NCBI GenBank assembly: GCA_030646255.1
Contig: JAUSNF010000021.1
Location: forward strand, 9,340-73,339
Direction: 5' to 3'
DNA from: Candidatus Burarchaeum sp.
Lineage (GTDB): Archaea > Micrarchaeota > Micrarchaeia > Burarchaeales > Burarchaeaceae
Length of the DNA stretch: 64,000 nucleotides
The notes under the pieces: generated by a model
The model's database searches: none
What the model was told of the DNA's origin: nothing
The model's input: only the letters and a program-made list of their open reading frames with translations
Made by a program: the position numbers and the translations under genes
Shown here: positions 691-26,134 of the stretch, one piece after another
Layout of the letters: every line of letters starts with the position of its first letter
Position numbering within the stretch: the stretch's first letter is position 1

Positions 691-1320
691 CTACTTTTCC
701 CAAAGCGGTATGACGCTAGTTTTGCCCTCTATTATTTTGAAGTAGGAATCATCCCCAATGCTGAACTTCCTGTTCACTGCCCAGGCTACGAAATCAACGG
801 CCTGCAGCGCCCTATCTTCATATCCATGCAGGCCTTTTATCTGAAGCCCCTTTTGCGGGAAGGCCTCCTTGAATTTGCCGCATACGTATTCCTCAAACTC
901 CCTGCTCAGCAGCCTGTTGGTTTCCCGCTTTTCATAAACGATCGAAACCTCAGCGCACTCTTCTATCTCCATGGTCTGCAGCAGTATTCCTGCAATGTAG
1001 CTGTAAAGCCTGACTTTTTTATCGTATAACTCTGGGCGTATTTTCTGTTTGTCCACCACTATTGTGGCCAGCCTGCAGTCCATCTCGTTTATGGCCTTAA
1101 GGACATAGCGCCTTATTTCCTCATCTGAATTGTTCGCCTTTATCTGCGGAAGGCTGGAAAGCCTCTTGTTCAGCCGCCGCTCCCGTATTCTTTTCATCTT
1201 GTTCTGTATTGGTTTCGGGTCTCCTGTAATTAGTGCGGATATGTTGAAGTATTTGCTTCCGTGCGTTCCCAGGTCTCCACTTTCATCGACAAAAAGGTAT
1301 AGGCATATTGCATTCTCCAT
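691..1320 (-). CDS. DUF3800-family protein (defence/abortive-infection-associated)
   Basis: N-terminal LYLFVDESGDLG motif typical of DUF3800, ~210 aa, AT-richer than flanks. Confidence 0.6.
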   Translation of the reverse strand: MENAICLYLFVDESGDLGTHGSKYFNISALITGDPKPIQNKMKRIRERRLNKRLSSLPQIKANNSDEEIRRYVLKAINEMDCRLATIVVDKQKIRPELYDKKVRLYSYIAGILLQTMEIEECAEVSIVYEKRETNRLLSREFEEYVCGKFKEAFPQKGLQIKGLHGYEDRALQAVDFVAWAVNRKFSIGDDSYFKIIEGKTSVIPLWEK

Positions 1321-1363
1321 AGTAGCGCCATAAATGAACCTTTTGCCGAAGCTTATAAACCAC

Positions 1364-1401
1364 CCGAGACCGGGGAGCGGGTGACTTCCTTACTTCTCCC
1401 C
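1364..1401. repeat. Direct repeat copy A (core GGGGAGCGGGTGACTTCC)
   Basis: 16-bp identical core plus similar flanks with copy at 2841-2879. Confidence 0.5.
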
Positions 1402-1465
1402 TATGGGATCTTCGCCGCCCGAGTTGATGTAAAGGTTTTTATACCTGCCAAAGGAAAGGAAAAGC

Positions 1466-1693
1466 ATGAAGAACCTCGGGCTTACAGCCGTAATCTGGAA
1501 GGAAGGAAAGCACTACGTTTCGCTCTGCCCGCAGCTCGATGTTTCGAGCTTCGGCTCCACAAAGGCCGAAGCCATCGAGAACCTCAAGGAAGCGGCATCC
1601 CTTTATCTTGAGTCGGCAAAGCAGGTGAAGCTTCCCCTGCCTGCCAGCGTAGTTTACAAGAAATTCGTGCTGCCTCTTAAACTGGCTCAATAG
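1466..1693 (+). CDS. hicB: HicB-like (UPF0150) antitoxin, short form
   Basis: 75 aa; motif ...KEGKHYVSLCPQLD...GSTKAEAIENLKEAASLYLE matches the HicB N-domain; 10 bp upstream of hicA. Confidence 0.6.
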   Translation: MKNLGLTAVIWKEGKHYVSLCPQLDVSSFGSTKAEAIENLKEAASLYLESAKQVKLPLPASVVYKKFVLPLKLAQ

Positions 1694-1702
1694 GGCGGTC
1701 CC

Positions 1703-1936
1703 ATGGCCGGGCTGCGGAACATAACTTCGAAGCAGATGGTCGAGTTCCTGAAATCAAAGGGATTCTCGGAACTGCGCCAGAAGGGAAGCCATCTCTCGAT
1801 GTTTTCCCCTTCAACCAAGCACCTCACCGTAGTTCCCATGCACGGGACAAAAGAAATACCAATAGGCACAATTCTTTCAATTCTCCGCTCAGCGGGCTTG
1901 TCGCGAAAAGAGCTCGAGGAATTTTTAGGAAGATGA
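1703..1936 (+). CDS. hicA: HicA mRNA-interferase toxin
   Basis: 77 aa; KGSHLSMFSP...VPMHGTKEIPIGTILSILRSAGL matches the YcfA/HicA signature. Confidence 0.7.
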   Translation: MAGLRNITSKQMVEFLKSKGFSELRQKGSHLSMFSPSTKHLTVVPMHGTKEIPIGTILSILRSAGLSRKELEEFLGR

Positions 1937-2062
1937 TGCTAAGCGGCTCACCGCCCGATAGTTTCAAGCCGCGTTACCTTTCCTGCCCTTGCCTCTGCCT
2001 TAAGCTTGCGCAGTTCCGCCATCTCTGCCTTGCTGAGGGTTATCTCATGCACGAGCTCGCCC

Positions 2063-2134
2063 CTAATACTTCTGCCTATACGCCTTCTTTTTCTCAACGC
2101 GCTGGTACTTGGTCTGGAACTTCTTCTTGCTCAT
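2063..2134 (-). CDS. Micro-ORF copy 1, 23 aa basic peptide MSKKKFQTKYQRVEKKKAYRQKY
   Basis: Paralogue at 5792-5863; differences between copies are mostly synonymous or conservative; G-rich RBS-like GGGGGG about 8 nt upstream and an AT-rich box further upstream. Confidence 0.4.
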   Translation of the reverse strand: MSKKKFQTKYQRVEKKKAYRQKY

Positions 2135-2180
2135 GCGAATCCCCCCATGCCTATTCTCTGCCGCATCTTCTATTATATCA

Positions 2181-2444
2181 CTATATGCCCGTCCACTCCT
2201 CATAATCTTTATGCGTGCCTATGAAAACAAGTGTTCTTACTGCGGCATCCTTGTCCTCGTGATAGCAGAGTCGGTACTGACCGATTTCGCAAACGCAGAT
2301 TGGAAGCCCCTGCTTCAGGTGCCTTGCAGAAATGCCGCCCGCAAGCTGCTCTATCTTCTTCATCACCCTCACTTTCATTCCCTTGTCTAGCTTCGAGAAA
2401 CAAGCGTCCCAGGCAGGATGGAACCATATCTCCCAGGCGCTCAT
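2181..2444 (-). CDS. RelE/ParE-superfamily toxin
   Basis: 87 aa; ...GQYRLCYHEDKDAAVRTLVFIGTHKDYEEW pattern; 4-nt overlap with the upstream antitoxin. Confidence 0.65.
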   Translation of the reverse strand: MSAWEIWFHPAWDACFSKLDKGMKVRVMKKIEQLAGGISARHLKQGLPICVCEIGQYRLCYHEDKDAAVRTLVFIGTHKDYEEWTGI

Positions 2445-2713
2445 TCAAAGGCCTCCGGGTATTTGCGCCTGACATCTGCCATTGTGAGTGCCTTCTTCTT
2501 TCCGCTCCTGAGCTCCTGCATCATGGCCTGCGCCTTTGCTGCAGCCAGCTCATCCATCACTTCCTCCCTGCTCTTTATCATGTGGTATTCCTTGCCTAGC
2601 GCGAGTATGCCCGCCCTTACTGCCTCATTCTTGGTCTTGAAAAAGCCGGCTTCCACTAGGTGCTTGAGCGTTTCTTCTACGGGACCTTCCAGCCTTACTA
2701 GTAATTCCGACAT
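2441..2713 (-). CDS. ParD/CopG-type ribbon-helix-helix antitoxin
   Basis: 90 aa; N-terminal LVRLEGPVEETLKHLVEAGFFKTKNEAVRAGILAL RHH-like; directly precedes the toxin. Confidence 0.55.
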   Translation of the reverse strand: MSELLVRLEGPVEETLKHLVEAGFFKTKNEAVRAGILALGKEYHMIKSREEVMDELAAAKAQAMMQELRSGKKKALTMADVRRKYPEAFE

Positions 2714-2840
2714 TTTACCACCTGTCTTAGTTATATATCAGATTGATATATAAACATATCACTTTGATATACCTGTTCAAGCTATGCATCATTCCTGCTT
2801 CCGCTCTCCTTCAAAGAATATTGGGCATTTAAAGCCTCGG

Positions 2841-2879
2841 AGAGTGGGGAGCGGGTGACTTGCCCTACCTTTTCTTTCC
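2841..2879. repeat. Direct repeat copy B (core GGGGAGCGGGTGACTTGCC), overlaps the Fic stop codon
   Basis: Matches 1364-1401. Confidence 0.5.
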
Positions 2880-3809
2880 AAGCATCCTCTTCAGTGCCTT
2901 ATACTCCTTCAGCAGCAGATTCAGCGTGGGCCTGAGGTCGTGCCCGTGCTCGTACTTCTGCAACGCCGCATAATACTCGCTCCTGTGCTTCATCTCAATG
3001 TTCACCGGCGGCAGGCCGTTCTTCAGCAGCATGTTGTTCAGCAAAAGCCTACCTACCCGGCCGTTACCGTCCTGGAACGGGTGAATGTTCTCGAACTGAT
3101 TGTGAATGACTGCAGCCAGCACGAGCGGAGGGTACCTGCGCCTGTTCTTGGAATACCAGCGCACCAGCTCGAACAGCAGGCTCCTGACCTGCGAGGAAGG
3201 CGCTCCCTGATGCACAATCCTGCGCGCGCCGTCCACCACCGCCACTTCAACGCCCGGCGGCCTGAGCTTGCCTGCAAAGGGCTTCGAGTTTCCGAAAACA
3301 AGCCTATGAAGCTCGAGGATGAGCGGCAGGGAGATATGCTCCTTGGTCTTCCTGATGAACGCAATCGCATTGGCGACCCCATAGGTTTCCGATATCTCCT
3401 CCTTCGGCTTGTCCGGCCAGTTGTCTTTTTCCAATATTTCTTCAACTTCCTTGTAGCTGACAGTGGAACCTTCGATGGCGTTGGTGTCATAGGCGAAGGA
3501 TTCGACGAATTTCTGCCAGTCTTCTTCTGACAGGTGCGCTATTCTGATTTCCCCCATCGCCTCGAGCGTGCGAAGCTCCTTCAGCTCTTGCGGTGAGAGA
3601 GCGGCTTCAAGCGGGTCCCGCATGCCTGCCTGCGCGCTGATTTTGGCCGTTAGCTTTGCTTCGGCCATGCGCTTAGCTTCCGCAAGCTCGTCGGGGCTGA
3701 GGTTCTCGCCGAGATAGATGCGGAGCTTCCTCACCTTGCCGCCCTTCCGGTACGAGTGTGCGAGATAGTATTTTTTCCCTCCCCTCAGTTTCCTAATTTC
3801 GACGTGCAT
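2865..3809 (-). CDS. fic: Fic/Doc-family protein (AMPylase-type)
   Basis: HPFQDGNGRVGR Fic motif, 314 aa. Confidence 0.85.
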   Translation of the reverse strand: MHVEIRKLRGGKKYYLAHSYRKGGKVRKLRIYLGENLSPDELAEAKRMAEAKLTAKISAQAGMRDPLEAALSPQELKELRTLEAMGEIRIAHLSEEDWQKFVESFAYDTNAIEGSTVSYKEVEEILEKDNWPDKPKEEISETYGVANAIAFIRKTKEHISLPLILELHRLVFGNSKPFAGKLRPPGVEVAVVDGARRIVHQGAPSSQVRSLLFELVRWYSKNRRRYPPLVLAAVIHNQFENIHPFQDGNGRVGRLLLNNMLLKNGLPPVNIEMKHRSEYYAALQKYEHGHDLRPTLNLLLKEYKALKRMLGKKR

Positions 3810-3816
3810 GATGCTA

Positions 3817-3932
3817 TTAGGTGACTACATTTTATAAACATTTGCATTTAGGTGACCACACTCACGTCGTAAGCGGGCCGGCTTTAGGTGACTACACATA
3901 CGTCGTAAGCAAGCGCGTTTGGGTGACTACAC
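3817..3932. repeat. Four iteron-like direct repeats T(T/A)(A/G)GGTGAC(T/C)ACA, spaced 32-36 bp, plus 2x CGTCGTAAGC
   Basis: Read directly at about 3817, 3848, 3884 and 3919; lies between the divergent fic start and the helicase gene. Confidence 0.7.
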
Positions 3933-4179
3933 ACGCACATTTTGACGCCTAAATGCGTGCCTAAAAAAACGGCGTGGATTTTACCACACATTTTTCCATT
4001 TCAATGTAAGCCAATACATCGCTCATTTCTTCCCCGCCGCGTCCCCTACGCCTTCCTCCCGCTGTCGTAACTCCACCGCCTTTTTAACAATTGACTTTCC
4101 ATACGCATCTGCGATCAGCAGGTGGGATATTGGTCGAGCGGTATGAAGAACCTAGCGTGATTTAGGGGATGGCTTCGTT

Positions 4180-5682
4180 ATGGGTAGTGCAGCAGCGTAT
4201 TCAACCAATTCATACTCTAGCGCGCCCAAATCCCTTTTGGAACGGCTCGAACCGCTAAACAAAAGAATTAGCGAGCGCATAGAAAGAGAGAGGCAAGAAG
4301 ATGTGCGCACACCCTTGGCCATGGGGCACTCCAGACGTGTTCACAAGACTAGAATAGTTAGGGACGTAATCGGGACAATGACGCAGTTTCCCCTGCGCCT
4401 CGGTTGGGCATTAACGATACACAAAAGCCAGGGCCTTACTTTGCGGCATGTGTGCCTGGATTTTGGCCATAAAGCTCCCTGGGCCCATGGGCAAACTTAT
4501 GTCGCACTGAGCAGATGCACTGGTTTAGACGGACTTTTTCTGAAGGCGCCCATCAGCGATTCCAATGTAATTGTTGATGATCGGATCCTTGATTTTCTCA
4601 ATGATGCCGGTTTGGGCGATTCTCCTGAACTGGACGGCAATTCAACCAGTTTTTATGCACCCCGTGCTTCTGAAACTAGCACGGGCAGCAAGGAAGAACT
4701 GCTTGAACTGCTGGAAACATCAAAAGACTCATTTTTCATAACGGGCCCTGCCGGAAGCGGCAAATCAACCCTAATCAGGGAATTCGTCAATAATACTGAG
4801 AAAAATTCAGTAATCGTGACGTTTACTGGAATAGCTGCCATCAATGTCGGAGGCCAGACTATCAATTCTTTCTTCAGAATCCCGCCTTTCAATTCCAAAA
4901 CTAGGGAGGCAAAGCCCCTTTCGAAAGAAGAGTGCGAGCTGTACCGGAGCATCGACATCATCCTGATAGATGAAATTTCAATGGTCCGCGCGGATTTATT
5001 TGATGAGATGGATGAACGGATGCGCGAGGCCAAACAAAATGACAGCCCATTTGGCGGAGTCCGCATGCTTCTTTTCGGTGACTATTACCAGCTGCCGCCA
5101 ATAGACGATGTTGGTGAAACCATTGCAAAAGGATACGGAACTGAGTATGCCTTCAGCTCCAATGCCTATCGTTCCATGAACATAAAAAATATAAAACTCC
5201 TGAAAATCCACCGCCAAAAAGAGGATTCCATTTTCTTGACGTGCCTTAATGCCATACGCACCGGAACCCGCAGAGAGCAGTTGAGCTCTGCGCTGGCTCA
5301 CATTAATGCCCGTTTCGGAGTAACACCGCAAGAAACTGCGGCCCGGTCGCTGGTAACTTTAACTACGACTAGGCAGCATGCAAAACAGATCAATGAAACA
5401 ATGCTGGGACAATTATCCGGTGAAGAATACCACTATTCTGCCACAGTAACTGGAAAGTTTCCGATTAAGGAAAATAGGATTCCTGCCGAGCTGGATTTAG
5501 TTCTAAAAGCGGGTGCGCGGGTAATTTTTACACAAAATGACCCGAATCATCAATGGGTGAATGGCAGCAGGGGAATAGTGACTAAGCTTACTGAAGATTC
5601 AATGAATATAAAATTAGACGACGGAACACTGGTTTCACCCAATCGTTTTCAATTTGAGATGTTCGAGCATAAGCTCGGTTAA
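4180..5682 (+). CDS. PIF1-like SF1B helicase, circularly permuted ORF
   Basis: Walker A GPAGSGKST, motif Ia GGQTINSFF, motif II ILIDEISMV and motif III LLFGDYYQLPPI at aa ~190-310, but the normally C-terminal motifs QFPLRLGWALTIHKSQG and GQTYVALSR sit at aa ~68-110; lower GC. Confidence 0.7.
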   Translation: MGSAAAYSTNSYSSAPKSLLERLEPLNKRISERIERERQEDVRTPLAMGHSRRVHKTRIVRDVIGTMTQFPLRLGWALTIHKSQGLTLRHVCLDFGHKAPWAHGQTYVALSRCTGLDGLFLKAPISDSNVIVDDRILDFLNDAGLGDSPELDGNSTSFYAPRASETSTGSKEELLELLETSKDSFFITGPAGSGKSTLIREFVNNTEKNSVIVTFTGIAAINVGGQTINSFFRIPPFNSKTREAKPLSKEECELYRSIDIILIDEISMVRADLFDEMDERMREAKQNDSPFGGVRMLLFGDYYQLPPIDDVGETIAKGYGTEYAFSSNAYRSMNIKNIKLLKIHRQKEDSIFLTCLNAIRTGTRREQLSSALAHINARFGVTPQETAARSLVTLTTTRQHAKQINETMLGQLSGEEYHYSATVTGKFPIKENRIPAELDLVLKAGARVIFTQNDPNHQWVNGSRGIVTKLTEDSMNIKLDDGTLVSPNRFQFEMFEHKLG

Positions 5683-5791
5683 ACTCGTCAGAGGCTGAAG
5701 CACCCTTAAAGCTACTTTCTAGCCGTACTGCTCCTTAATTCCTCCCAGTTGCATTCGCAGTTCCCACCAGCCAGCAGTCTGCCTTCCAATC

Positions 5792-5863
5792 CTAATACTT
5801 CTGCCTATATGCCTTCTTTTTTTCCAGGCGCTGGTATTTTGCCTGGAACTTCTTCTTGCTCAT
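5792..5863 (-). CDS. Micro-ORF copy 2, MSKKKFQAKYQRLEKKKAYRQKY
   Basis: Paralogue of 2063-2134; RBS-like AGGGG upstream; immediately downstream of mscL on the same strand. Confidence 0.4.
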   Translation of the reverse strand: MSKKKFQAKYQRLEKKKAYRQKY

Positions 5864-5992
5864 GCGTATCAACCCCTATCTTCTACGTCTTCTCTACTTT
5901 TTATCAACAATCCTTATCAAAAACGGTATCAGGATGTACAGCGTCGTGCTCCATGTGCTGCCCGCCATTGCAACCAAAATTGCACCTCTCCA

Positions 5993-6319
5993 TCACTTCT
6001 TTTTCTTCCCTGTCGCTTCCTCCTTCATAATCAACTTCACTATGGTGAAGACTACGAGCGCGATTATCATAAAGTCTATCAGCGCGCCCACGAAGTCGCC
6101 TATCATGAACTTTGCAGAACCTATCTGCAGGGTGGCCGTGCGCCAGTCTCCGCCAGGTATGAGCACGCCGATTATGGGCATTATAATGTCAGTCACAAGG
6201 GCAGTAACCATTTTGGTCGAGGCCGCGCCTATGACAAATGCAACTGCCAGTCCTATTACCTGATATTTCTTCAGGAACTCCGCAAATTCGGACAAAACGC
6301 TCATGCGACCACCATGCAT
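5993..6319 (-). CDS. mscL: Large-conductance mechanosensitive channel MscL
   Basis: ...FAEFLKKYQVIGLAVAFVIGAASTKMVTALVTDIIMPIIG... MscL signature, 108 aa. Confidence 0.8.
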   Translation of the reverse strand: MHGGRMSVLSEFAEFLKKYQVIGLAVAFVIGAASTKMVTALVTDIIMPIIGVLIPGGDWRTATLQIGSAKFMIGDFVGALIDFMIIALVVFTIVKLIMKEEATGKKKK

Positions 6320-6379
6320 GAGCTCGGAAAGCGGGTTTATAATTATTTATACTTTACTTGAAATGCATAGTCAGAAGAG

Positions 6380-7222
6380 GTGGTTGTCTTGAAGGGAATT
6401 TACTTATTCGCGTTGTTGGCCGTTTTCAGTCTTCTTATGGCAGGCTGCATTAACCTGCCGGGCCAGCAGGCTCAGCCAGCGCCTGAAAAGAATGCGCAGA
6501 CTGGCACCAACTTCGAGATCGAGCTCTACAAGGCGCAGGTGGACAAGGCAGCCCTGCAGGAGAAGTATGATGCTGCAACGGCAGACCTAAGGCAGTGCCT
6601 GGCAGACACGGCCGCATGCGAGGGCAAGCCCGCCGAGAAGTGCCCTGCACCTGAGAACTGCGATGCCATAAAGGCGGAAAGGGATTCTGCGCTTTCAAGG
6701 CTCTCAACCTGCATAGACGAGAAGGCCGCCATAGCCGGCTCGACGGGAACGTGCAATTCAGCTCTTTCAACGTGCCTTTCCGACAAGTCAGGTTTGACAA
6801 CCTCGCTTGCAACATGCACTGCGGACAAGAGCGCCCTGCAGCTTAGTCTAACTGCGGCGCAGAATGCAGTGCCGAACACTACGGTATGGCACTATGCACC
6901 CGGCAATTTAGGCGCTGAGGGCGGCACCGGCTACAGGACAACAGACTACAAGGTGCCCAGCAGCCTGAAGAAGGCGCTCATAGGGCTGGATTATTCAGGA
7001 GGCAGTGACGCGTTCTTCGGGCCAGGCGTAGTGTCCGGCCTAGTGAGGTGGTACACCATGACCTCGGTGGACGGCGTGCGCTTCAGCTCGGACATAGATG
7101 ACACTGTCGTTATCGACCTGTCCGTTGGCAATCCTCTGAAGGTGAAGACAGTCGAGTTCGCGGCAGGCACTTCAAAGGAGGGCTTTGCACTAAAACGCGT
7201 GATTGCAATTTACATCCAATGA
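6380..7222 (+). CDS. Putative secreted lipoprotein, Cys-rich with a coiled-coil
   Basis: Signal peptide followed by the LLMAGC lipobox-like motif; no recognisable domain. Confidence 0.4.
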   Translation: MVVLKGIYLFALLAVFSLLMAGCINLPGQQAQPAPEKNAQTGTNFEIELYKAQVDKAALQEKYDAATADLRQCLADTAACEGKPAEKCPAPENCDAIKAERDSALSRLSTCIDEKAAIAGSTGTCNSALSTCLSDKSGLTTSLATCTADKSALQLSLTAAQNAVPNTTVWHYAPGNLGAEGGTGYRTTDYKVPSSLKKALIGLDYSGGSDAFFGPGVVSGLVRWYTMTSVDGVRFSSDIDDTVVIDLSVGNPLKVKTVEFAAGTSKEGFALKRVIAIYIQ

Positions 7223-7327
7223 GCGCTTCCAGTCATTTGCGCGCAAGCTTCAGGCCTATGAATGCAAGAAGCGCCAGCACGATTAGCGCGCCCACTCACG
7301 TGCAGCTTGCAGTGCCTGCAGAAAATC

Positions 7328-8044
7328 CTATGCGCGCATTTCCCTGTGGCGCACAAACGCCGCACCGGCAATGAAAAGCAGCCCGAATGCCGGCAGGCAG
7401 CATACCGAGCCCCCGCCCTGGTCCTGCTCAATCTTCTGGAAAGCCTGCTTTAGCTCGTCCTTATTCTCCGCAGTATAATACTTGCCTCCGCCCGCAGCTG
7501 CAATCTGCTGGTGCTGCGCCTTGGCAGCCGGGTCATCGGCGAGCGAGTAGCTGATGACGTTTATCACTGCTATTCCCTCATCCGTAGTCTTCTGGGCCTC
7601 GAGCACCGGGTCCCCGCCGCAGTTCTCCTCGCCGTCAGTAAGCAGTATTATGGTACCCTTCCCGCCCATCTCGCTCTTCACGTACTCCCTTCCCTCTGCA
7701 ATCGCCTCTGCTATGGGCGTCCAGTCTCCGGTGCCTATGCCGTTTATAGAGCTTCTCAGCTCCTGCTTGTTCGAAGTGAGCTCCCTTATCACGCGTATGT
7801 CGCCTGTCTGCGGGTTCCCTCCGTCATCGCACGTGTGGAATTTCATGACGGCGAACTGGTCTCCCTGCGATGCATCTATGAAATCTATGGCCGCGGCCTT
7901 GGCCGCCTCCAGCTTCGTCTCCCCGCTGTCCAGGTAGTCGTCCATGCTGGTGCTGGCATCCATTATGACAAGGAAGGAGCCTGCCGATACTGTGGCTGCG
8001 AGAAGCAGCAAGAATAGTCCTGTTTTTGCAATATATCTTTTCAT
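7328..8044 (-). CDS. Secreted von Willebrand factor A domain protein with a C-terminal membrane anchor
   Basis: Signal peptide, MIDAS DASTSMDD, C-terminal LPAFGLLFIAGAAFVRHR PGF-CTERM-like tail. Confidence 0.7.
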   Translation of the reverse strand: MKRYIAKTGLFLLLLAATVSAGSFLVIMDASTSMDDYLDSGETKLEAAKAAAIDFIDASQGDQFAVMKFHTCDDGGNPQTGDIRVIRELTSNKQELRSSINGIGTGDWTPIAEAIAEGREYVKSEMGGKGTIILLTDGEENCGGDPVLEAQKTTDEGIAVINVISYSLADDPAAKAQHQQIAAAGGGKYYTAENKDELKQAFQKIEQDQGGGSVCCLPAFGLLFIAGAAFVRHREMRA

Positions 8045-8180
8045 ACAGTTGTAATTCTTGCTTCCTTTAAAAACCTAACTGCCACCGCCAACAATCGCGT
8101 GCAATTCTCGTGCCTGCCCGGGCAGTGATGCAAAACTATAAATAAGACTGCTTCCAACCCCTTTCCAGAGGTGTTTACCT

Positions 8181-8729
8181 ATGCCGCCAGTGAAGAAAAA
8201 ACCGATTCATTTCAAGCATCATGAAATTTACACAGGCCCGCGCTCCGGCACGGACATAGATTACTCTCACTACTATTCTAGCGCAGGCACGAATGTGCAC
8301 TTCCTTGTGGCTGTGTTCATAGGCGCGCTGGTCTATTCCGTAATTTCATTCATCGTGCACATGGCGGGCGCAATTGCCGACATGGGCTATTACTTCATGC
8401 CAGACTATTTCAGCGTGTGGAGCAAGCTCATGATGCCTGTTGCAGGCCCGCCGCCAATTGAGTTCACCTATGCCTCACTGCTCTTCGGCTTCATAGCCGG
8501 CTTGCTCTTCACCTACTGCTTCTATCTAGTAAGGAACTCAATGCCGGGCAAGGGCATTGCAAAGGGGCTGAACTACGGAATGTTCGTAATGCTCCTGGCA
8601 GGCCTGCCCTTCTACATGACAATGACTCTGCTCATCAACCTGCCGCAGGGCCTGATGCTCTCGTGGCTCGTGCAGACATTCATAATCTACGAGCTGTCGG
8701 GCATTGCAGTTGCAAAGCTGGTGCGCTGA
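8181..8729 (+). CDS. Hypothetical multi-pass membrane protein
   Basis: Four or five hydrophobic segments. Confidence 0.35.
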   Translation: MPPVKKKPIHFKHHEIYTGPRSGTDIDYSHYYSSAGTNVHFLVAVFIGALVYSVISFIVHMAGAIADMGYYFMPDYFSVWSKLMMPVAGPPPIEFTYASLLFGFIAGLLFTYCFYLVRNSMPGKGIAKGLNYGMFVMLLAGLPFYMTMTLLINLPQGLMLSWLVQTFIIYELSGIAVAKLVR

Positions 8730-9032
8730 GCTGGCGTACAGATGTGAACGCATGGACAAGCGCCTGATGGCAAAGCTCAAGTTTGCACTTCTTGTGCTAG
8801 CCGAGCTAGCGGGCCTTGTCTTTATCTTCCTCAGCAGGGAAAAAGTCAACCTCATGTTCATGTCGGACTATGGGTCTATTTTTGCAATGATCGTTTTTGC
8901 TACGTTCTGCACATCTTTTGAGCTGAGGCTCCTGGAAGAGATGAAGCAGGCCTAGCACCAGCGCTTTTTCAGGCGGCAGGCTCGGCATTAGATATAAATA
9001 CCCCCTCAGGCCAAAACTGGGCAGGCGATCGG

Positions 9033-12000
9033 TTGGTTTTCATAAAGGAATTGTCACTGCGGAACTTCAAATCATTCAAGAGCGTCGACATTAAGCTCAG
9101 CCCCGGCCTTATCTGCCTGGCAGGCCCGAATGGCTCTGGGAAGTCGAACGTTACTGACGCCGTGCGCTTTGCGCTGGGCGAGATGAGCCTGAAGCAGCTC
9201 AGGCCTGAGGGCAAGAAGGCGAGCGGCCTGATTAGGCGGGGCTCGAGCCATGCTGTCGTAGGCGTGGTTTTCGGCGGGGAAGCGGGACTGGAAATAAAGC
9301 GGGCCATACGTGAAGATGGCAAGATGGCCTACAGGCTTGATGGCAAGCGGGCTACGAGAACATCAGTAGTTGAGAGCCTGCGCAAGGTGGGCGCAGAGGT
9401 GGGCGAACACAACGTCATCGCGCAGGGCGAGGTTGACCGAGTAGTGAAGATGAATGCGAAAGAAAGGCGCGAAATTATCGACCGCGCTTCGGGAGTTTAC
9501 GAGTTTGAGGAGAAGAAAAAGGAGGCGCTTTCAGAACTCAACAAAGTAGAGAGCCGCATAAGCGAGGCCAACATTGCGATAGGTGAGCGCGAGGGCGTGC
9601 TCTCGGAGCTCGAGAAGCAGAAGGACGAGGCCCTGCGTTATGCGGAGCTGAGCAAGGAGCTCAAGCGCGCCAAAGGTACGCTCATACATGCGGAAATGAT
9701 TAGGCTTGAAAAAGAGTTTGAGGGCAGTGCCAAGAAGGCTGCAGATTTGCAGGCCAAGTTTGATGCATTGCAGCATGAGCTCGAGGGGCTTGAGGCTAAA
9801 TTGGAAGGGCTTGAGAGCGAGCGCTCCAAAATAGCGAGCATCATAAATGAGCAGGCAGGCAAGGAAGGCCTGCGCGAGGAGCTTGAAAGGCTGCGCACTG
9901 AGATTGAGAGCAACTCGCGGCTGAGGGTTGAGAAGGAAAGGCAGGTCGGCGAGCTGCGCAAGTCCATAGCTGCGCAGGATGTCGAGCTCAAATCATTCGA
10001 GACAAAAATGGTCAATGCTCTCAAGGAAGCAGGAGAGTCAGAGAAGCAGGCCAAGGCTTTGGCAGGCGAGATAGCTGCGGGTGAGAAGGAAAGGTCCCAC
10101 GTTTTGTCAGGCGCTGGAGGCAAGCGCGCAGCAGAGCTGCGCAAGCGCCACTCAGAGCTGCTCAGGCAGATGGAGGAGAAGAAGGGCGCCGCGCTCGAGT
10201 CTGAGTCTGCTGCTGTACGCGATTCTGAAATTGCAAAGCTCAAGGAAGAGGAGCTCGCGCTAATAGCCGGCGAGCTGGGCGAGGGAAATGGGCGGGCGGC
10301 TGAGCTTGAGTCGCAGCTCGGGGAGCTGAACGGAAAGCTTGCAATATTTGCAAAAGAGGAGGATGACATTTTCGAGCGCGAGAAGGAAATCAACAAGCGG
10401 CTGCCGGACTATGACCGCAGGATACTTGAGATTGGGAACAAACTGCCTGAAATGAGAATGGTGAGCGGCAAAAGGCCTGCAGTGGATGCAGTGATAAGCG
10501 CTTCAAAGGCAGGCCAGCTCGAGGGCATTGTAGGTACTGTTTCAGACTCCTGCACATTCGAAGAGAAATACGCGCTTGCGATTGAGGCGAGCGCAGGCCC
10601 AAGACTTCACTATATACTAACTGAAGATGCCGATGCAGCAATGGATGCTATTGAGCACCTGAAGAAGACTAAAGCGGGCAGGTGCTCGTTCATACCTCTC
10701 GACCGCAAGATTTCAAACCTGCCGCCCGAGGCCATGCAGTTCGAGAAGTCGCAGGGCGTGCTAGGTTTTCTCATCAACCTGGTTCAGTTCGACAAGAGGC
10801 ACCTGAACGCGCTCCACTATGTCTTCGGCGACACGTTGCTGGTAAAGGACTCGGAAACTGCAAAGCGGCTTACGGGCAAGGTGCGCACGGTCACGATGGA
10901 CGGCGAGCTCTTCGAAAGGTCAGGAATAATCACGGGCGGCCCCTTCGGTTCAGGCTCCTCGCTCAAGAGCAGGATCGAGCTCGAAAGGCTTGAAAAGCAG
11001 ATGGATGAGGTGCAGACGGCGAAGAAGGCCGCGCTCGCGGAGCTCTATTCCTCGCGTGATTCGCTGGGCCAGCGGAGAAGGGAAAAGTCAGGGCTTGAGG
11101 TCAAGGCGCGCGGGCTTGAGATTGAGCTCGAGGGCATGCGCGTGCAGGGCGAGAGGAAGAAGGGACTGGTGCAGAAGCGCTCACAGTTTGAAAATGACTT
11201 GCAGAATTTGAAGTCCGCCATCACAGAAAACCAGAAGACTGCGGGCGAGTTCCGGGAAGCGCTTTCGCGCATAGAGTCCGAGCTTGCATCAATCTCAAAA
11301 ATGCTTGATAGCCAGGAAGTGCCTGAGGAAAAGGCAGAGGAGCTCGCACTAATAGAGGGCAAGATAACTGAGCTGGGCGACAAGAGGCGCGGGCTCGACA
11401 ATCTGGCTTCATCCAAGAAGGCCGAAGTGAAGATGCTCGAGGAGAATATGGCGAAGGGCGAGGGTGAGCTCGAGGTTGCGAGAGCCTCGCTCAAGGAACT
11501 GCTTGGTGCAATCGAGCAGATGCGGAAGATTGTTGAGGCTGATGGCGGGCTTCTGAAGGAAAAGGAAGAAAAGATGAAGGAGGCGAGCTCCAAGATGGCC
11601 TCGCTCTACGAGCAGCAGACGAAGATGGGCGCCGAGGTTGAGAAATATTCTAAGGAAAAGGGCAAGGCGCAGTTCAACTTCACGCGGGTATCAAACGAGC
11701 TGGTCGAGATGAAGTCTACCAGGCAGATGCATGAGATGCGGCTGGGCGATTTGAAGGCCGAGTGGGCGGAGTACAAGGAAATCGAGACCATGCAGCTCTC
11801 GAAAGATGAGCTTGAGGACAGGATGAAACAGGTTGAAGGCGAGCTCAACGCCATGGGCATGGTCAACATGCTGGCGCCCGAGCAGTACGAGCAGAAGAGC
11901 GCTGAGCTGAAGGAGAAGAAGGAGATTATCGGGAAGCTTAGCGAGGAGAAGAAGGCCGTGCTGAGCATGATTGAGGAGATTGACAGCAGGAAAGCAGAAA

Positions 12001-12473
12001 TATTCCTGCAGACATTCAGGGCTGTGGATGAGAACTTCCGCAAGATATTTAATTACGCTTTGCCCGGCGAGGGCATGCTGCTGCTGGACAATCCTGACGA
12101 CATTTTCGACAGCGGGCTGCAGATAAAGGTAAGGGTGGACGGCAAGGACCACTACATAGAGGCCAAGTCTGGCGGTGAGCGATCACTTCTCGCACTCCTC
12201 TTTGTATTCGCCCTTCATTCTACAAGGCCCTCTTCATTCTACGTGCTGGACGAGGCGGATGCCGCGCTAGACAAGGAGAACAGCAAGAAGCTCGCGGACA
12301 TGCTCAAGCAGCTCTCGAAGAAGGCGCAGTTCATAGTAGTCACGCACAATGATACCGTGCTTTCTGCGGCAGACATCGCGCTCGGCGTGACAAGGCAGGA
12401 CGGGGTTTCAAAAATAGTCGGAATAGAGTTCAAGAAAATGGCGACAGCCTCGGCTTCAGCCCCGGCGGGCTGA
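9033..12473 (+). CDS. smc: SMC chromosome segregation ATPase
   Basis: Walker A GPNGSGKSN, long coiled coils, hinge, signature SGGERSL, Walker B LDEADAALD. Confidence 0.9.
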   Translation: MVFIKELSLRNFKSFKSVDIKLSPGLICLAGPNGSGKSNVTDAVRFALGEMSLKQLRPEGKKASGLIRRGSSHAVVGVVFGGEAGLEIKRAIREDGKMAYRLDGKRATRTSVVESLRKVGAEVGEHNVIAQGEVDRVVKMNAKERREIIDRASGVYEFEEKKKEALSELNKVESRISEANIAIGEREGVLSELEKQKDEALRYAELSKELKRAKGTLIHAEMIRLEKEFEGSAKKAADLQAKFDALQHELEGLEAKLEGLESERSKIASIINEQAGKEGLREELERLRTEIESNSRLRVEKERQVGELRKSIAAQDVELKSFETKMVNALKEAGESEKQAKALAGEIAAGEKERSHVLSGAGGKRAAELRKRHSELLRQMEEKKGAALESESAAVRDSEIAKLKEEELALIAGELGEGNGRAAELESQLGELNGKLAIFAKEEDDIFEREKEINKRLPDYDRRILEIGNKLPEMRMVSGKRPAVDAVISASKAGQLEGIVGTVSDSCTFEEKYALAIEASAGPRLHYILTEDADAAMDAIEHLKKTKAGRCSFIPLDRKISNLPPEAMQFEKSQGVLGFLINLVQFDKRHLNALHYVFGDTLLVKDSETAKRLTGKVRTVTMDGELFERSGIITGGPFGSGSSLKSRIELERLEKQMDEVQTAKKAALAELYSSRDSLGQRRREKSGLEVKARGLEIELEGMRVQGERKKGLVQKRSQFENDLQNLKSAITENQKTAGEFREALSRIESELASISKMLDSQEVPEEKAEELALIEGKITELGDKRRGLDNLASSKKAEVKMLEENMAKGEGELEVARASLKELLGAIEQMRKIVEADGGLLKEKEEKMKEASSKMASLYEQQTKMGAEVEKYSKEKGKAQFNFTRVSNELVEMKSTRQMHEMRLGDLKAEWAEYKEIETMQLSKDELEDRMKQVEGELNAMGMVNMLAPEQYEQKSAELKEKKEIIGKLSEEKKAVLSMIEEIDSRKAEIFLQTFRAVDENFRKIFNYALPGEGMLLLDNPDDIFDSGLQIKVRVDGKDHYIEAKSGGERSLLALLFVFALHSTRPSSFYVLDEADAALDKENSKKLADMLKQLSKKAQFIVVTHNDTVLSAADIALGVTRQDGVSKIVGIEFKKMATASASAPAG

Positions 12474-12475
12474 CG

Positions 12476-13516
12476 ATGATATATATGTACAAGAAAAGAC
12501 TGCAGAACTTTTTCACCAATTCAAAAGCAGACGCGCTCATCCTGCACAACGGCGATTCCGAGGGCTATTTTGACATCAACTACCGCTACTTCATGGGCCT
12601 TGAGTTCGACAACTCCATCCTGCTTGCGCGCCGCACTGGAAGCGCGATGCTGCTCTGCACCTCGCTGAACTATGATTATGCGCGCGAGAAGGCGCGCGTG
12701 CCAGTGGAAAAGATTGAGCGCAAGCTGCTGCCGCAGCAGCTCAAGAAATTCATGGCCAGCTGCAAGAGCATAGGCATAAACAAGCGCTCGCTGCGCCTCT
12801 CAACTTTTGAGGTTTTGAGAAAGGCAGGCAAGGGCAAAAAGTTTATGGATGTGAGCGAGGAGCTGGGCATGAATAGGGCTATGAAGGATGGCGAGGAGCT
12901 CGCGATAATGAAAAAGTGCATTACAAAAACGCGCGGCATTCTCGAATCCGTTGAAGTGCGCGCAGGCATGAAGGAAGAGGACATCCTGAAGAATTTGCGG
13001 GTGCAGGCGCTCGAGGCAGGCGCCGACATTTCCTTCCCGCCCATTGTGCTGAGCGGCCCGAAGGCCAGCATACCCCACGGCGTGACCGGTGGAAGAAGAA
13101 TAGGGGCCAATGAAGCTGTGCTTATAGACTTCGGACTGAAAATGAACGGCTACTGCTCAGACCTGACCAGGTGCTATTTCACGGGCGCGTGCAAGCAGGA
13201 GCGCTCTATTTATGAGAAACTACAGAATGTGCAGGAATCGCTGGCAGACTATGGCCACGCAGGCACGCGCATCTCTGAGTTTGTGAAAAAGTCCGACGCG
13301 CTCATTAGGCAGGCCGGCCTGCCCAAGCTGCCCCACTCAATCGGCCATGGTTTGGGCCTGTATGTGCATGAAGCTCCCTCGCTGTGCGCAGACTCCAAGA
13401 AGAAATTTGAGGCAGGCATGACATTGGCCATAGAGCCCAGCTACTACGGCAAGAAATTCGGCTTGCGCTACGAGAATGATTTTGTGGTAGGCGGAAAGAA
13501 ACTGCGGATGCTCTAG
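12476..13516 (+). CDS. M24-family Xaa-Pro peptidase
   Basis: PHSIGHGLGLYVHEAPS metal-binding motif. Confidence 0.8.
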   Translation: MIYMYKKRLQNFFTNSKADALILHNGDSEGYFDINYRYFMGLEFDNSILLARRTGSAMLLCTSLNYDYAREKARVPVEKIERKLLPQQLKKFMASCKSIGINKRSLRLSTFEVLRKAGKGKKFMDVSEELGMNRAMKDGEELAIMKKCITKTRGILESVEVRAGMKEEDILKNLRVQALEAGADISFPPIVLSGPKASIPHGVTGGRRIGANEAVLIDFGLKMNGYCSDLTRCYFTGACKQERSIYEKLQNVQESLADYGHAGTRISEFVKKSDALIRQAGLPKLPHSIGHGLGLYVHEAPSLCADSKKKFEAGMTLAIEPSYYGKKFGLRYENDFVVGGKKLRML

Positions 13517-13527
13517 CTGCAATCACT

Positions 13528-15714
13528 CTAGTCCAGGAAAGCTTCCGGCCTCGGAGGCTCCTTGGGCTCGCCCTTGCGCTCGCGCACCTGGTAGACAATC
13601 TTCTGCTGCAGCTCCTTGTTCAAAGGCTCGAAGCCTGCGTACTCAGTGTACCAGATTGCGCGGCCCTGCGTGGCGCCGCGGATGCTGTTCGAGAAGCCGA
13701 ACATTTCTGCAACAGGCACCTTGGCATTTACAGTCACAATCTCGCCTTCCTGCTCGATGTTCAGAACCTGCCCGCGCCTTCCCTGTATCTGGCTGATAAT
13801 CGCGCTCATGTAATCCTGCGGCGCCTGCACGAGCAGCTTCTGCTTGGGCTCGAGCAGCTGCACGCCTGCCAAAAGCATGGCAGCATAAATCGGGTTGCGC
13901 ACTGCCGGAATTACCTGCGCAGGCCCCCTGTGAACCGGGTCCTCGTGGATTTTCGCATCAACAACATAGACCATCATGCCCGTAACCTTCTCCTTTGCCA
14001 AGGGGCCTTTCATGCACGCTTCCTCAAATGCCTGTATGACGAGCTCCATAATCTCGTTTATGTACTGCACTCCCTTTGTCGCATCTATCAGTATGTTTGC
14101 GTTGAAAACGTCCGCAATGTTGCGCGCGTCCTCGCGCTCCATGCCAGCTGTGATGAACGGCTCCCAGAAGCCCTTGCCCTTCGGCTTCTTGTTCGGTATC
14201 GTCCCATCAGTAATTGCCTGCAGAAGCGTAGCGGGCATCGGCTCAACAGTCACCTTAATCTTGGTGTGCTTGTTGGGCGACTTGCCCTCAACAGGCCCTG
14301 CCGAGCCTATAATAGTCTCACGGTAAACGACAATCGGGGGCGAGGTCTCGATGGCCACGCCTTTCTCCTTCGTAATCTTGTACTCGATAATCTCAAGGTG
14401 CAGCTCGCCCATGCCAGAGAGCAGGTGCTCGCCGGTCTCCTGGTTGATTTCAACCCTGAGCGTCGGGTCTTCCTTCGCAAGCTGCCTCAGAATCTCAATG
14501 AGCTTCACAAGGTCCGAGGTATTCTTGGCCTCGATAGACTTGGTCACGACAGGCTCGGAATAATGCTTAATTTGCTCGAAAGGATCCATATCTCCCTCGC
14601 TTATGGTCTCGCCCACATACAAATCGTGCAGGCCTATAATCGCCACAATGTTGCCAGCAGGCACCTTTTCTACAAGCACGCGGTCAATGCCCATGTAAAC
14701 GCCAACCTGCTGCACCTTCTCGCTCACGTGCTTGGAGGCGAGCGTCAGCTCCGTTCCCTTTGTAACCGTGCCCGAGAATATGCGCGCAATGCCGACCTCG
14801 CCGGCATGCTCGTCAATAGTGACTCCGAAAATCACACCGCACACCTTGCCCTTTGCGTCAGCCGAGGTCATGCCCTTGCCGTACTCGCTCTGCAAATCTC
14901 CTTTCCAAAGAACTGGAATGCGGTACTTCTGCGCAGTCATCGGGTTGGGAAGGTGCGTAATCGCCATCTCGAGAATAACCTCGTCAATGGGCCCCTTTAC
15001 CATCAGCGTCTTGTGGTCCTGCTTCGAGCAGTAGTCGTAGATGGTCTTGAAGTTCAGCCCGCTGCGCTTCATGTGCGGCACGCTCACGGCCCACTTGTTG
15101 TATGCAGAGCCGAATGTCACATTGCCCTTCTCGGGCGAGATGAGCCACTCCTCCTTGTACTCGCCCGCATAATTCGTGATGAGCTTGTTCACGCCCGCAA
15201 TGATTTTCATGAGCTTTTCCTGCATTGCTTCGGGCGTGAGCTTAAGCTCGTTGATGAGCCTGTCAATCTTGTTGATGAAAAGAGTTGGCTTGGACTTTTC
15301 CTTGAGCGCCTGCCTCACCACCGTCTCGGTCTGCGGCATGATGCCCTCAACTGCGTCCACGACGAGAATTATGCCGTCGACAGCCCTCATCGCCCTCGTC
15401 ACGTGGCCTCCGAAGTCCACGTGCCCGGGCGTATCAATTAAATTAATCAAGTGCGGCTTGCCCTGGTAGTTGAAGCCCAGGGAAATGTTTGCCGCCTTAA
15501 TCGTGATGCCGCGCGCCTGCTCCTGCTCATCATAGTCAAGCACGCGCTGCTCGCCCGCAAGCTCCTTTGAGATGAGCCCTGCGCGGGCAACAAGAGAATC
15601 AGACATCGTGGTCTTGCCATGGTCGACGTGCGCCACAATCGCCATGTTGCGCACCTGCTCGAGGTTGCCCATGATGGACTGCACTTCATCGACAACATAT
15701 TCTTTTCGAACCAT
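13528..15714 (-). CDS. fusA: Elongation factor 2 (aEF-2)
   Basis: AHVDHGKTT G-domain, 728 aa, downstream of S7. Confidence 0.95.
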   Translation of the reverse strand: MVRKEYVVDEVQSIMGNLEQVRNMAIVAHVDHGKTTMSDSLVARAGLISKELAGEQRVLDYDEQEQARGITIKAANISLGFNYQGKPHLINLIDTPGHVDFGGHVTRAMRAVDGIILVVDAVEGIMPQTETVVRQALKEKSKPTLFINKIDRLINELKLTPEAMQEKLMKIIAGVNKLITNYAGEYKEEWLISPEKGNVTFGSAYNKWAVSVPHMKRSGLNFKTIYDYCSKQDHKTLMVKGPIDEVILEMAITHLPNPMTAQKYRIPVLWKGDLQSEYGKGMTSADAKGKVCGVIFGVTIDEHAGEVGIARIFSGTVTKGTELTLASKHVSEKVQQVGVYMGIDRVLVEKVPAGNIVAIIGLHDLYVGETISEGDMDPFEQIKHYSEPVVTKSIEAKNTSDLVKLIEILRQLAKEDPTLRVEINQETGEHLLSGMGELHLEIIEYKITKEKGVAIETSPPIVVYRETIIGSAGPVEGKSPNKHTKIKVTVEPMPATLLQAITDGTIPNKKPKGKGFWEPFITAGMEREDARNIADVFNANILIDATKGVQYINEIMELVIQAFEEACMKGPLAKEKVTGMMVYVVDAKIHEDPVHRGPAQVIPAVRNPIYAAMLLAGVQLLEPKQKLLVQAPQDYMSAIISQIQGRRGQVLNIEQEGEIVTVNAKVPVAEMFGFSNSIRGATQGRAIWYTEYAGFEPLNKELQQKIVYQVRERKGEPKEPPRPEAFLD

Positions 15715-24997: not shown

Positions 24998-25231
24998 TTA
25001 TTCTATTACTAGCCTGTAATACCTGATCTCGATTTTCTTGTCAACATCGCCCTTGCGTATAATCCTGACAACATCGCCCGGCTCAGCCATGCCTTTTATA
25101 ATCACGTCATTGGCCGAAATTTTCGGCAACTGCTCGGGCTTCAGTCCGCTTTCAGAGAAGAACTTCTCCCTCTCGCCCCCGGATAGTATTTCGTGTACAG
25201 GAATTAGGATATGCTCTGGGGACTCGGCCAA
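24998..25231 (-). CDS. rpoH: RNA polymerase subunit H
   Basis: 77 aa Rpb5-like; HILIPVHEIL... Confidence 0.85.
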   Translation of the reverse strand: MAESPEHILIPVHEILSGGEREKFFSESGLKPEQLPKISANDVIIKGMAEPGDVVRIIRKGDVDKKIEIRYYRLVIE

Positions 25232-25390
25232 ATAACCACCTTACTTTAGAAGTGCAATGTGGCTCTTACATAAGTCGGCAAGTTTTATAAAGCTTAAGCC
25301 GCCTTTTTGCAACAACTTTACCGTAGTTCCTGCGCAAACTATATGTACAGTGTCTGCTTCTAGCCTATTTTCTTCCTTAACCTCTATTCC

Positions 25391-26134
25391 TTAAAGTTGT
25401 TCACCATATTTATCATAATATCTCTTTATAGCCACGTCCATATTCTCCTCTAATTTGAGCTCTGAAATACGCCTTTTCCCTTCCTTATGATACTCCATGA
25501 TCTCCTTCCATTCATCATCCGTAACTTTATCCGTATTCTCCTCCTTGGGGGTCTCTCCCTTTCCTCCTCCTAAAACCGTTGCGATCCCGCTTATGAGCGG
25601 CTCATTTCCGCTTTCCTCTGTTTTAAACCTGTCCCCAATTGGGTGCTCTTTGTCGTATCTTTTTGTAATTGTCTCCATTGTTTTATCGATAAATCCGAAG
25701 AACTCATTTGTTTTTTTATCCTTAAGCTCCCTTTCCTTCTGCTGCAAATTAAGTGCCTCAAGCTTCAGATTGACACCGTCCAGCTTATGTTGAAGCCAAA
25801 TCAGTTCAGCTATCCAATATTTTTTTGGATTATCCTTTGCATAGATTTTCTTGTTTAGCCGTTCTATTTTATCACTCAACTTCTTGCGCTGCCTCTCCCA
25901 AAGTGCGCAGTTGTAGTCCTCGTTCGGTATCTCCTTCTTGACTAGCGCAGGTCCAAGGTCGTGCAATAGCCTGAAATTGAACGCAATCTGGCTCGGCGAG
26001 AACTTAGTCAACAGCGGGTTCCGAGCCACAGTCCTTGCATCTTTTTGCATGGCATTTCTTGCTCTTTGAAAGCTTAAAAACTTTATAATCATGCTCGCCT
26101 GCAAGCGCGCCTTACTTCTTCTGGTCTTCCTCAA
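25391..26134 (-). CDS. Hypothetical protein encoded in an AT-rich insertion
   Basis: GC markedly below the flanking DNA; charged/coiled-coil composition; no recognisable motif. Confidence 0.4.
   Translation of the reverse strand: MRKTRRSKARLQASMIIKFLSFQRARNAMQKDARTVARNPLLTKFSPSQIAFNFRLLHDLGPALVKKEIPNEDYNCALWERQRKKLSDKIERLNKKIYAKDNPKKYWIAELIWLQHKLDGVNLKLEALNLQQKERELKDKKTNEFFGFIDKTMETITKRYDKEHPIGDRFKTEESGNEPLISGIATVLGGGKGETPKEENTDKVTDDEWKEIMEYHKEGKRRISELKLEENMDVAIKRYYDKYGEQL

Follow-up and report, generated by a model that had tools for sequence, protein, structure and literature searches.

Helicase motifs I to VI are usually described in strict order. The closest described systems to the gene reported here are the bacterial Pif1 helicases of superfamily 1B (SF1B) with available structures, namely BsPif1 (5FTB/5FHD) and the proteins from Sulfurihydrogenibium (8BNS), Deferribacter (8BNV) and Thermus oshimai (6S3E), and the collinear Pif1 order is domain 1A, the first half of domain 2A, domain 2B, the second half of 2A and a C-terminal helix. 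Here we describe a complete open reading frame (ORF) at positions 4180..5682 of the forward strand in a 64,000-nucleotide stretch of contig JAUSNF010000021.1 (the whole stretch is called the window below), which encodes a Pif1-family SF1B helicase in circularly permuted order. The contig belongs to a metagenome-assembled genome (MAG) of Candidatus Burarchaeum sp., a member of the Micrarchaeia in the DPANN group. The protein shares with the bacterial structures the SF1B motifs I, Ia and II to VI, the PFGG signature, the pin Phe, the SH3-like 2B domain with its long hairpin and the C-terminal helix. Unlike them, it places the last ~90 canonical residues first, splits the "loop3" hairpin of domain 2B between its two termini, adds a 54-residue orphan N-terminal extension and a 25-residue linker, and has His in place of Tyr332.

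In BsPif1, domain 2B comprises aa 251-354 and contains an unusually long beta15-beta16 hairpin, loop3 (aa 322-350), which is a protruding surface element whose top (aa 331-341) rotates upon DNA binding (PMC4824106). Movement of this hairpin is essential for unwinding, which is gated by loop3 closure and rotation onto 1B; among mutations of the tip, Y332F nearly abolishes unwinding and I339C speeds it (PMC4824106). Domain 1A, where the N-terminus (aa 1-71) is located, provides the surface on which the C-terminal helix (aa 402-431) packs, and open and closed 2B states of Rep, UvrD and PcrA are cited in the same work as 2B regulation in SF1 helicases (PMC4824106). In all of these cases a collinear chain carries point mutations or crosslinks, whereas in the protein described here the chain is broken at the loop3 tip.

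Rotated nucleotide-binding motifs have a precedent in the circularly permuted GTPases (cpGTPases; YlqF/RbgA/YjeQ), which are natural and functional permutations of the P-loop NTPase motif order. However, the cpGTPases are TRAFAC GTPases permuted within one domain and form an ancient family conserved across life, whereas the present helicase is a motor of two RecA domains and is a singleton. Tandem duplication, fusion and trimming is the proposed origin of other natural permutants, among them the permuted DNA methyltransferases, in which a short linker joins the old termini, and tandem-fused intermediates are documented for families of the DNA methyltransferase type; in the Pif1 family, by comparison, only a partial duplication of domain 1A was seen. 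The arrangement, if true, would be to our knowledge the first SF1 helicase core to be circularly permuted in nature; in the literature searched, neither Pif1 nor any other helicase, of SF1 or otherwise, was described as circularly permuted.

Membership in the Pif1 family was clear. Residues 180-350 matched the Pfam model PF05970 (PIF1) with 94.1 bits against a cut-off of 25.9, residues 75-121 matched the Herpes_Helicase and UvrD_C_2 models at their C-terminal ends, and residues 437-477 gave two weak matches below the respective cut-offs (Pif1_2B_dom, 18.5 versus 23.9 bits; SH3_13, 16.4 versus 41). The NCBIfam equivalog cut-offs for RecD and RecD2 were not reached (TIGR01447, 54 versus 310 bits; TIGR01448, 51 versus 500), and a library of defence systems returned just generic RecD-like or partial matches.

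The rotated order was observed with two kinds of comparison. When the protein was aligned with PDB sequences by phmmer, residues 173-497 corresponded to residues 13-338 of 8bns_A and residues 58-141 to residues 346-428 (full-sequence E 1e-83), and the same reversed pattern in two pieces was obtained with 8bnv, 5ftb, 5fhd and ToPif1. A profile hidden Markov model (HMM) built from 91 canonical homologs placed its positions 348-434, which cover motifs V and VI and the C-terminal helix, on residues 55-142 with 122 bits, and its positions 19-340, which cover motifs I to IV and the SH3-like 2B domain, on residues 168-494 with 363 bits. The two profile segments neither overlapped nor lost anything between them, with ~7 profile positions at the cut lying outside the aligned segments. 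The independent E-values of the pieces were 7e-61 and 2e-19 against 8bns and 1e-112 and 1e-39 against the homolog profile; chance is excluded because both pieces match the Pif1 family independently. Self-comparison of the 500-aa protein revealed no internal repeat. The ORF therefore does not follow the collinear order but reads second half of 2A, C-terminal helix, linker, 1A, first half of 2A and 2B, and it holds the full set of homologous segments, rotated, in a single polypeptide with nothing duplicated or missing, which is the general mark of a circular permutant. We consider it nearly certain that ORF 4180-5682 is a real permuted ORF. A sequence-only reading of this DNA had proposed a permuted PIF1-like helicase in one uninterrupted ORF, and at the sequence level both comparisons bear it out, including its expectation that the C-terminal HMM positions would fall on N-terminal residues. 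The motifs that it quoted are present where it placed them, with QFPL...TIHKSQG at 69-85 and GQTYVALSR at 104-112 in the front piece, and GPAGSGKST at 189-197, DEISMV at 264-269, GDYYQLPP at 300-307, NGSRGIV at 461-467 and RFQFEMF at 489-495 in the back piece.

The frame runs for 500 codons plus a stop from an ATG start without interruption. Its homologous part opens at residues 55-74 (4342..4401), which form strand beta16 of the loop3 hairpin leading into QFPL and correspond approximately to BsPif1 335-354. The second half of the RecA-like domain 2A follows at residues 75-123 (4402..4548), with motif V (TIHKSQG, 79-85), motif VI (GQTYVALSR, 104-112) and the arginine finger R112 (domain limits from PMC4824106). 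Residues 124-142 (4549..4605) form the helix of the C-terminal domain, the counterpart of which packs on domain 1A in BsPif1. A Ser/Gly/Ala-rich linker, AGLGDSPELDGNSTSFYAPRASETS, at residues 143-167 (4606..4680) has no profile match and leads from the old C-terminus to the old N-terminus. Domain 1A/1B then occupies residues 168-344 (4681..5211) with motif I (GPAGSGKST), motif Ia, pin Phe232, motif II (DEISMV), PFGG (290-293) and motif III (GDYYQLPP), the first half of domain 2A occupies residues 345-411 (5212..5412) with motif IV Arg345 and motif A, and the SH3-like 2B domain occupies residues 412-500 (5413..5679) with motifs B and C. All of these features lie on the forward strand. The last strand, beta15 of the loop3 hairpin (RFQFEMFEHKLG), is directly followed by the stop codon.

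The position of the cut could be placed within a few residues. In the phmmer alignments, the last aligned residue, 494, corresponds to BsPif1 329 and residue 57 to BsPif1 337, which puts the cut between 329 and 337. The end of the ORF, RFQFEMFEHKLG followed by the stop, resembles canonical ...eeWENIkYe, and the start of the homologous part, HKTRIVRDVIGTMTQFPL, resembles canonical ETGEIVEEVIGKLKQYPL. Given the structure of loop3, the new termini would lie at its tip, which protrudes from the surface. The sequence-only reading had held that the chain would run on naturally from its C-terminus into its own N-terminus, and this agrees with an ORF that ends in beta15 and a homologous part that opens with beta16 at residue 55. 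It was right that the ORF ends within 2B, but the cut falls precisely at the hairpin tip and not simply after 2B; likewise, residues 55-142 are homologous to the motif V/VI part, but the first 54 residues are a nonhomologous extension. Joining of the old termini by the 25-residue linker is plausible because both old termini lie on domain 1A in BsPif1. An extended linker of 25 residues could reach roughly 85-90 Angstrom, which should exceed the size of the helicase core, and the linker could plausibly bridge the two.

The N-terminal extension (residues 1-54, 4180..4341, forward strand) has no family homology, with a helix predicted at residues 17-41, and gave no match in the Pif1-family profile or in a large protein database. 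Origins as a decayed remnant of 2B or as the beginning of a different gene were considered and rejected: the sole signal, a match of residues 21-38 to profile positions 217-233, was insignificant (E 0.02 in a one-sequence search, -0.5 bits), the extension did not resemble the C-terminus of the same protein, and the large protein database held no homolog. The NCBI gene call for the ORF begins at a TTG at codon 20 (position 4237) and yields 481 aa (MDO8339492.1 / WP_304766168.1) under the product name "AAA family ATPase". An in-frame ATG at codon 48 (4321) is an alternative start, 7 residues ahead of the first homologous strand, and would give a nearly extension-free product.

Of the residues checked, nearly all that contact ATP or single-stranded DNA (ssDNA) in BsPif1 were retained, in both pieces. 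In the back piece these are K195, T227, the pin F232, Q304 and R345 (BsPif1 K34, T66, F71, Q145 and R188), and in the front piece T79, H81, K82 and R112 (BsPif1 T359, H361, K362 and R390). Residues D264 and E265 of motif II fall in invariant alignment columns, and K195, Q304, R345, T79-G85 and R112 are likewise invariant in homologs. The Pif1 signature was found between motifs II and III at residues 272-295, DLFDEMDERMREAKQNDSPFGGVR, in which P290, F291, G292 and G293 are invariant or nearly so. Motif Ia is divergent, with TFTG in place of APTG.

When AlphaFold was run on the single sequence, the predicted local distance difference test (pLDDT) score was 32. With the 91 canonical homologs, residues 168-494 were modeled at pLDDT ~75-98, including ~90 for the 1A/1B part and 76-95 for residues 412-494, and this modeled part matched BsPif1 (5fhd_A) in Foldseek with E 7e-25.

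The permuted order was found in this gene alone. Of the best 120 matches from 5.8 billion protein clusters, 119 were canonical and one was the gene itself. A phmmer search over 1.84 billion representatives gave 30,741 matches, and within the best 150 of these a single collinear stretch was obtained for the gene itself alone. When 267 retrieved relatives were rescanned with the canonical profile, 265 were collinear and the other two were start-codon versions of the present ORF. The DNA of the linker had no exact match in JGI metagenome contigs, and a protein-guided scan of the same contigs recovered one relative, which was canonical, and no permuted one. A permuted relative more than ~46% identical would have headed these search lists. 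The closest relative found, P0002 (451 aa, JGI metagenome 3300081534), had the top total score of 350 bits at 46-48% identity; it differs from the query in its canonical collinear order and in the GC content of its gene (0.57 versus 0.47). The nearest organism-named homologs are bacterial, for example from Levybacteria, Pacebacteria and Muribaculaceae.

An identical 500-aa product is encoded on the Logan contig SRR13727526_124660 (run SRR13727526, 16,615 bp). This contig matched window positions 2185-15682 with 100% identity over 13,498 bp and spanned both ORF ends and the internal junction without a break. The comparison is one of two different assembly pipelines, which were possibly built from the same reads and are hence not fully independent. 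No repeats of at least 13 nt were present at the junctions, and no other Pif1-like or helicase fragments were detected in the 64-kb window (tblastn E <= 10, with seven canonical homologs as queries). Had the DNA come from a tandem or circular copy, we infer that a de Bruijn contig should have ended at the point where the copy runs back into itself, but this one continues.

Taken together, the data moderately favor a genuine single-copy gene of the Candidatus Burarchaeum population, whose product is a naturally circularly permuted Pif1 (SF1B) helicase of bacterial type. That this permutant is also functional is, judged from the sequence, an evenly balanced proposition. More tentatively, falling a little short of that, it may be a working SF1 helicase in which domain 2A is built from both chain ends, loop3 is open at its tip and 2B gating differs from that of every described Pif1. 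In such a protein, the chain would fold like Pif1, with the strands of the hairpin pairing as N- and C-terminal strands (57-65 with 490-497) and with domain 2A assembled from two distant segments, residues 55-142 docking on the first half of 2A. ATP would be hydrolyzed at the 1A/2A cleft, with motifs I to IV supplied by the back of the chain and motifs V and VI by the front, and 5'->3' translocation on ssDNA or helicase activity would be retained. One of the two connections between 2B and 2A would be gone, and free chain ends, one of them with the 54-residue extension, would stand in place of the hairpin tip, so that the gating that BsPif1 needs for unwinding would probably be altered, whether weakened or left unregulated.

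If the protein is active, the Pif1 motor tolerates a chain break at the tip of loop3, the movement of which BsPif1 requires to unwind, and the gene would offer a natural experiment on 2B tethering and unwinding control that can be compared with engineered 2B mutants. If it is inactive, it would be a mere curiosity of a fast-evolving DPANN accessory island. A helicase core with this arrangement is unusual and lends itself to direct testing, but it is a singleton from a MAG, with a putative function. It also carries a warning for annotation, since collinear HMMs return just "AAA family ATPase" and partial PIF1 coverage.

The permutant probably originated by duplication, fusion and trimming, which is the most economical route. 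A P0002-like canonical gene would have undergone tandem duplication and in-frame fusion, followed by loss of the outer redundant parts, and the permutation may have come before or after horizontal transfer into the low-GC accessory island. Another relative, P0128 (676 aa), is a canonical Pif1 with an extra domain 1A in front (profile positions 16-201, then 19-436), which indicates that intragenic tandem duplication does occur in the Pif1 family. When independent random paired truncations of a tandem dimer were simulated, an exact complement (no loss, overlap of at most 7 residues) was obtained in 1.8% of trials. This exactness, together with the absence of leftovers and a cut at a surface turn, favors either selection for a complete fold or an origin by a single cut. 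Of the three options offered by the sequence-only reading, a genuine permuted protein formed by duplication and deletion fits best, with the mechanism of origin and the activity deduced.

Several observations weigh against a working gene, and most of them are what would be expected if the DNA arrangement were real but the product a nonfunctional relic, in which recent duplication and deletions of an acquired Pif1 left a still-open frame in a junk-rich island. We regard such a relic as rather unlikely, although more probable than the other alternatives. The permuted arrangement is a singleton from one organism among the 267 relatives checked, so that evolutionary conservation of the permuted order is absent. 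The gene is located in a fast-evolving, low-GC toxin-antitoxin/Fic accessory island that is missing from the sister species. BsPif1 depends for unwinding on the hairpin that is cut here, and cutting the loop3 tip might for that reason cripple this activity. His497 stands at the position of BsPif1 Tyr332, and BsPif1 H68 is replaced by Asn229, the only exception among the ATPase and ssDNA-contact residues checked. The query retained 97 (87%) of the 111 columns with a conservation of 90% or more, compared with a family mean of 97%. In the AlphaFold run with canonical homologs, residues 41-159 remained below pLDDT 50, the front piece being without alignment coverage in that run. A scan for bacterial-type promoters and terminators around the gene gave no sites above shuffled sequence, with a scan model that is unsuited to archaea.

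Against a relic, the 500-codon frame is free of interruption, the ATPase residues checked are all intact, and so are the ssDNA-contact residues apart from H68. The low retention of conserved columns is common to P0002, which was the only canonical homolog that scored below the query. P0002 shares 6 of the 14 departing columns, four of them with the identical residue, namely W101 in the front piece and S193, R295 and A324 in the back piece. Because the shared departures occur in both pieces, both descend from one P0002-like lineage and the gene is not a chimera, and because they are shared with a canonical protein, the divergence is largely older than the permutation; by this comparison, the departures are not a sign of decay after permutation. 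The Tyr332 column likewise lacks Tyr in P0002, which has Gln. Furthermore, no redundant fragments are present, the breakpoints are exact complements at a surface turn (~2% under random truncation), and the junction is in frame with a linker-like composition. The tandem-duplication remnant raised by the sequence-only reading, that is, a decaying leftover, is not favored, in view of the missing redundant pieces, the intact key residues and the lineage-typical divergence. Two further comparisons between the pieces carried little information: a correlation of per-homolog identity (rho -0.25) was discarded as biased, the homologs having been chosen by summed score, and nearest-neighbor ranking per piece was not decisive, all homologs being about equally distant.

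A circular or concatemeric canonical copy (plasmid, virus or excised circle), linearized inside the gene and inserted by illegitimate recombination, would be an improbable source of the permuted gene. It has the merit that breakpoints coinciding within about 7 residues, without overlap or loss, are automatic for one cut, as opposed to ~2% for two truncations, and the surroundings are plasmid-like, with iteron-like repeats at 3816-3933, toxin-antitoxin pairs and 85-nt direct repeats around a 3.7-kb block. However, the junction between the old end and the old start is just 75 nt and in frame, which would imply an implausible circle of ~1.4 kb holding the gene alone, and we know of no replicon of such a kind. 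Circularizing the 3.7-kb block at its direct repeats gives no canonical gene, and no related circular element was found in the JGI metagenome contigs. An assembly chimera, in which short-read assembly misjoined pieces of a genome that in truth has the gene in canonical form, as a tandem array or on a small circular element, would suit a MAG, two assemblies possibly made from the same reads and the exactly coincident breakpoints of an opened circle, but is highly improbable, as is the plasmid copy collapsed during assembly that the sequence-only reading had entertained, because the 13,498 bp from two pipelines are identical and continuous across all three novel junctions, the junctions lack repeats of at least 13 nt, the window holds no second copy or helicase fragment, and three chimeric joins would be needed with the reading frame kept in each.

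The surroundings of the permuted helicase gene differ from the rest of the window. The gene has a GC content of 0.469, within the lowest 2.6% of same-sized segments (window mean 0.543), and lies in a low-GC accessory island at 691-5875 (0.50 versus 0.547 elsewhere). The other island genes are a DUF3800 gene (691-1320, reverse strand), a HicB-like gene with HicA (1466-1936, forward strand), a RelE-like gene with its antitoxin (2181-2713, reverse strand) and a SoFic-like Fic protein (2865-3809, reverse strand; PADLOC E 1.8e-32). In the sister species LFW-281_7, in which SMC is 78% identical, the order MscL, p182, SMC is the same, without any island gene or Pif1. The helicase is an acquired accessory gene outside the core replication machinery, with defence, upkeep of a mobile element and repair as possible roles.

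Three sets of repeats were observed in this part of the window. GGTGACYACA (extended TTTAGGTGACYACAC) occurs four times at 3816-3933 with spacings of 31, 36 and 35 nt, in the gap that separates the Fic gene (start 3809, reverse strand) from the divergently oriented helicase gene (start 4180). This is the sole site of the motif in the 64 kb (4 versus 0.09 expected), and the array resembles an operator or a set of iterons. A direct repeat of 85-89 nt with 88% identity (2062-2148 and 5791-5879) brackets the 3.7-kb block with the RelE-like gene, the antitoxin, Fic and the helicase, and each copy encodes a 23-aa basic peptide on the reverse strand, MSKKKFQ(T/A)KYQR(V/L)EKKKAYRQKY. The 85-nt repeat was not found in the sister genome L002. 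Paralogous micro-ORFs and recombination scars are candidates for these copies; attachment sites of an integrated circle were rejected, since the repeats code for a small peptide and circularizing there does not bring back a gene of canonical order. A 37-nt repeat with 78% identity (1351-1387 and 2825-2861) ends in GGGGAGCGGGTGACTT and includes a TATA-like TTTATAA on the reverse strand. Each copy lies upstream of the start of a reverse-strand gene (1320 and 2713), and the repeat may be a shared promoter or operator element. Elsewhere in the window, the sharpest dip in GC content was at 25001-26000 (0.433 versus ~0.55), which overlaps a 247-aa ORF at 25391-26134 on the reverse strand.

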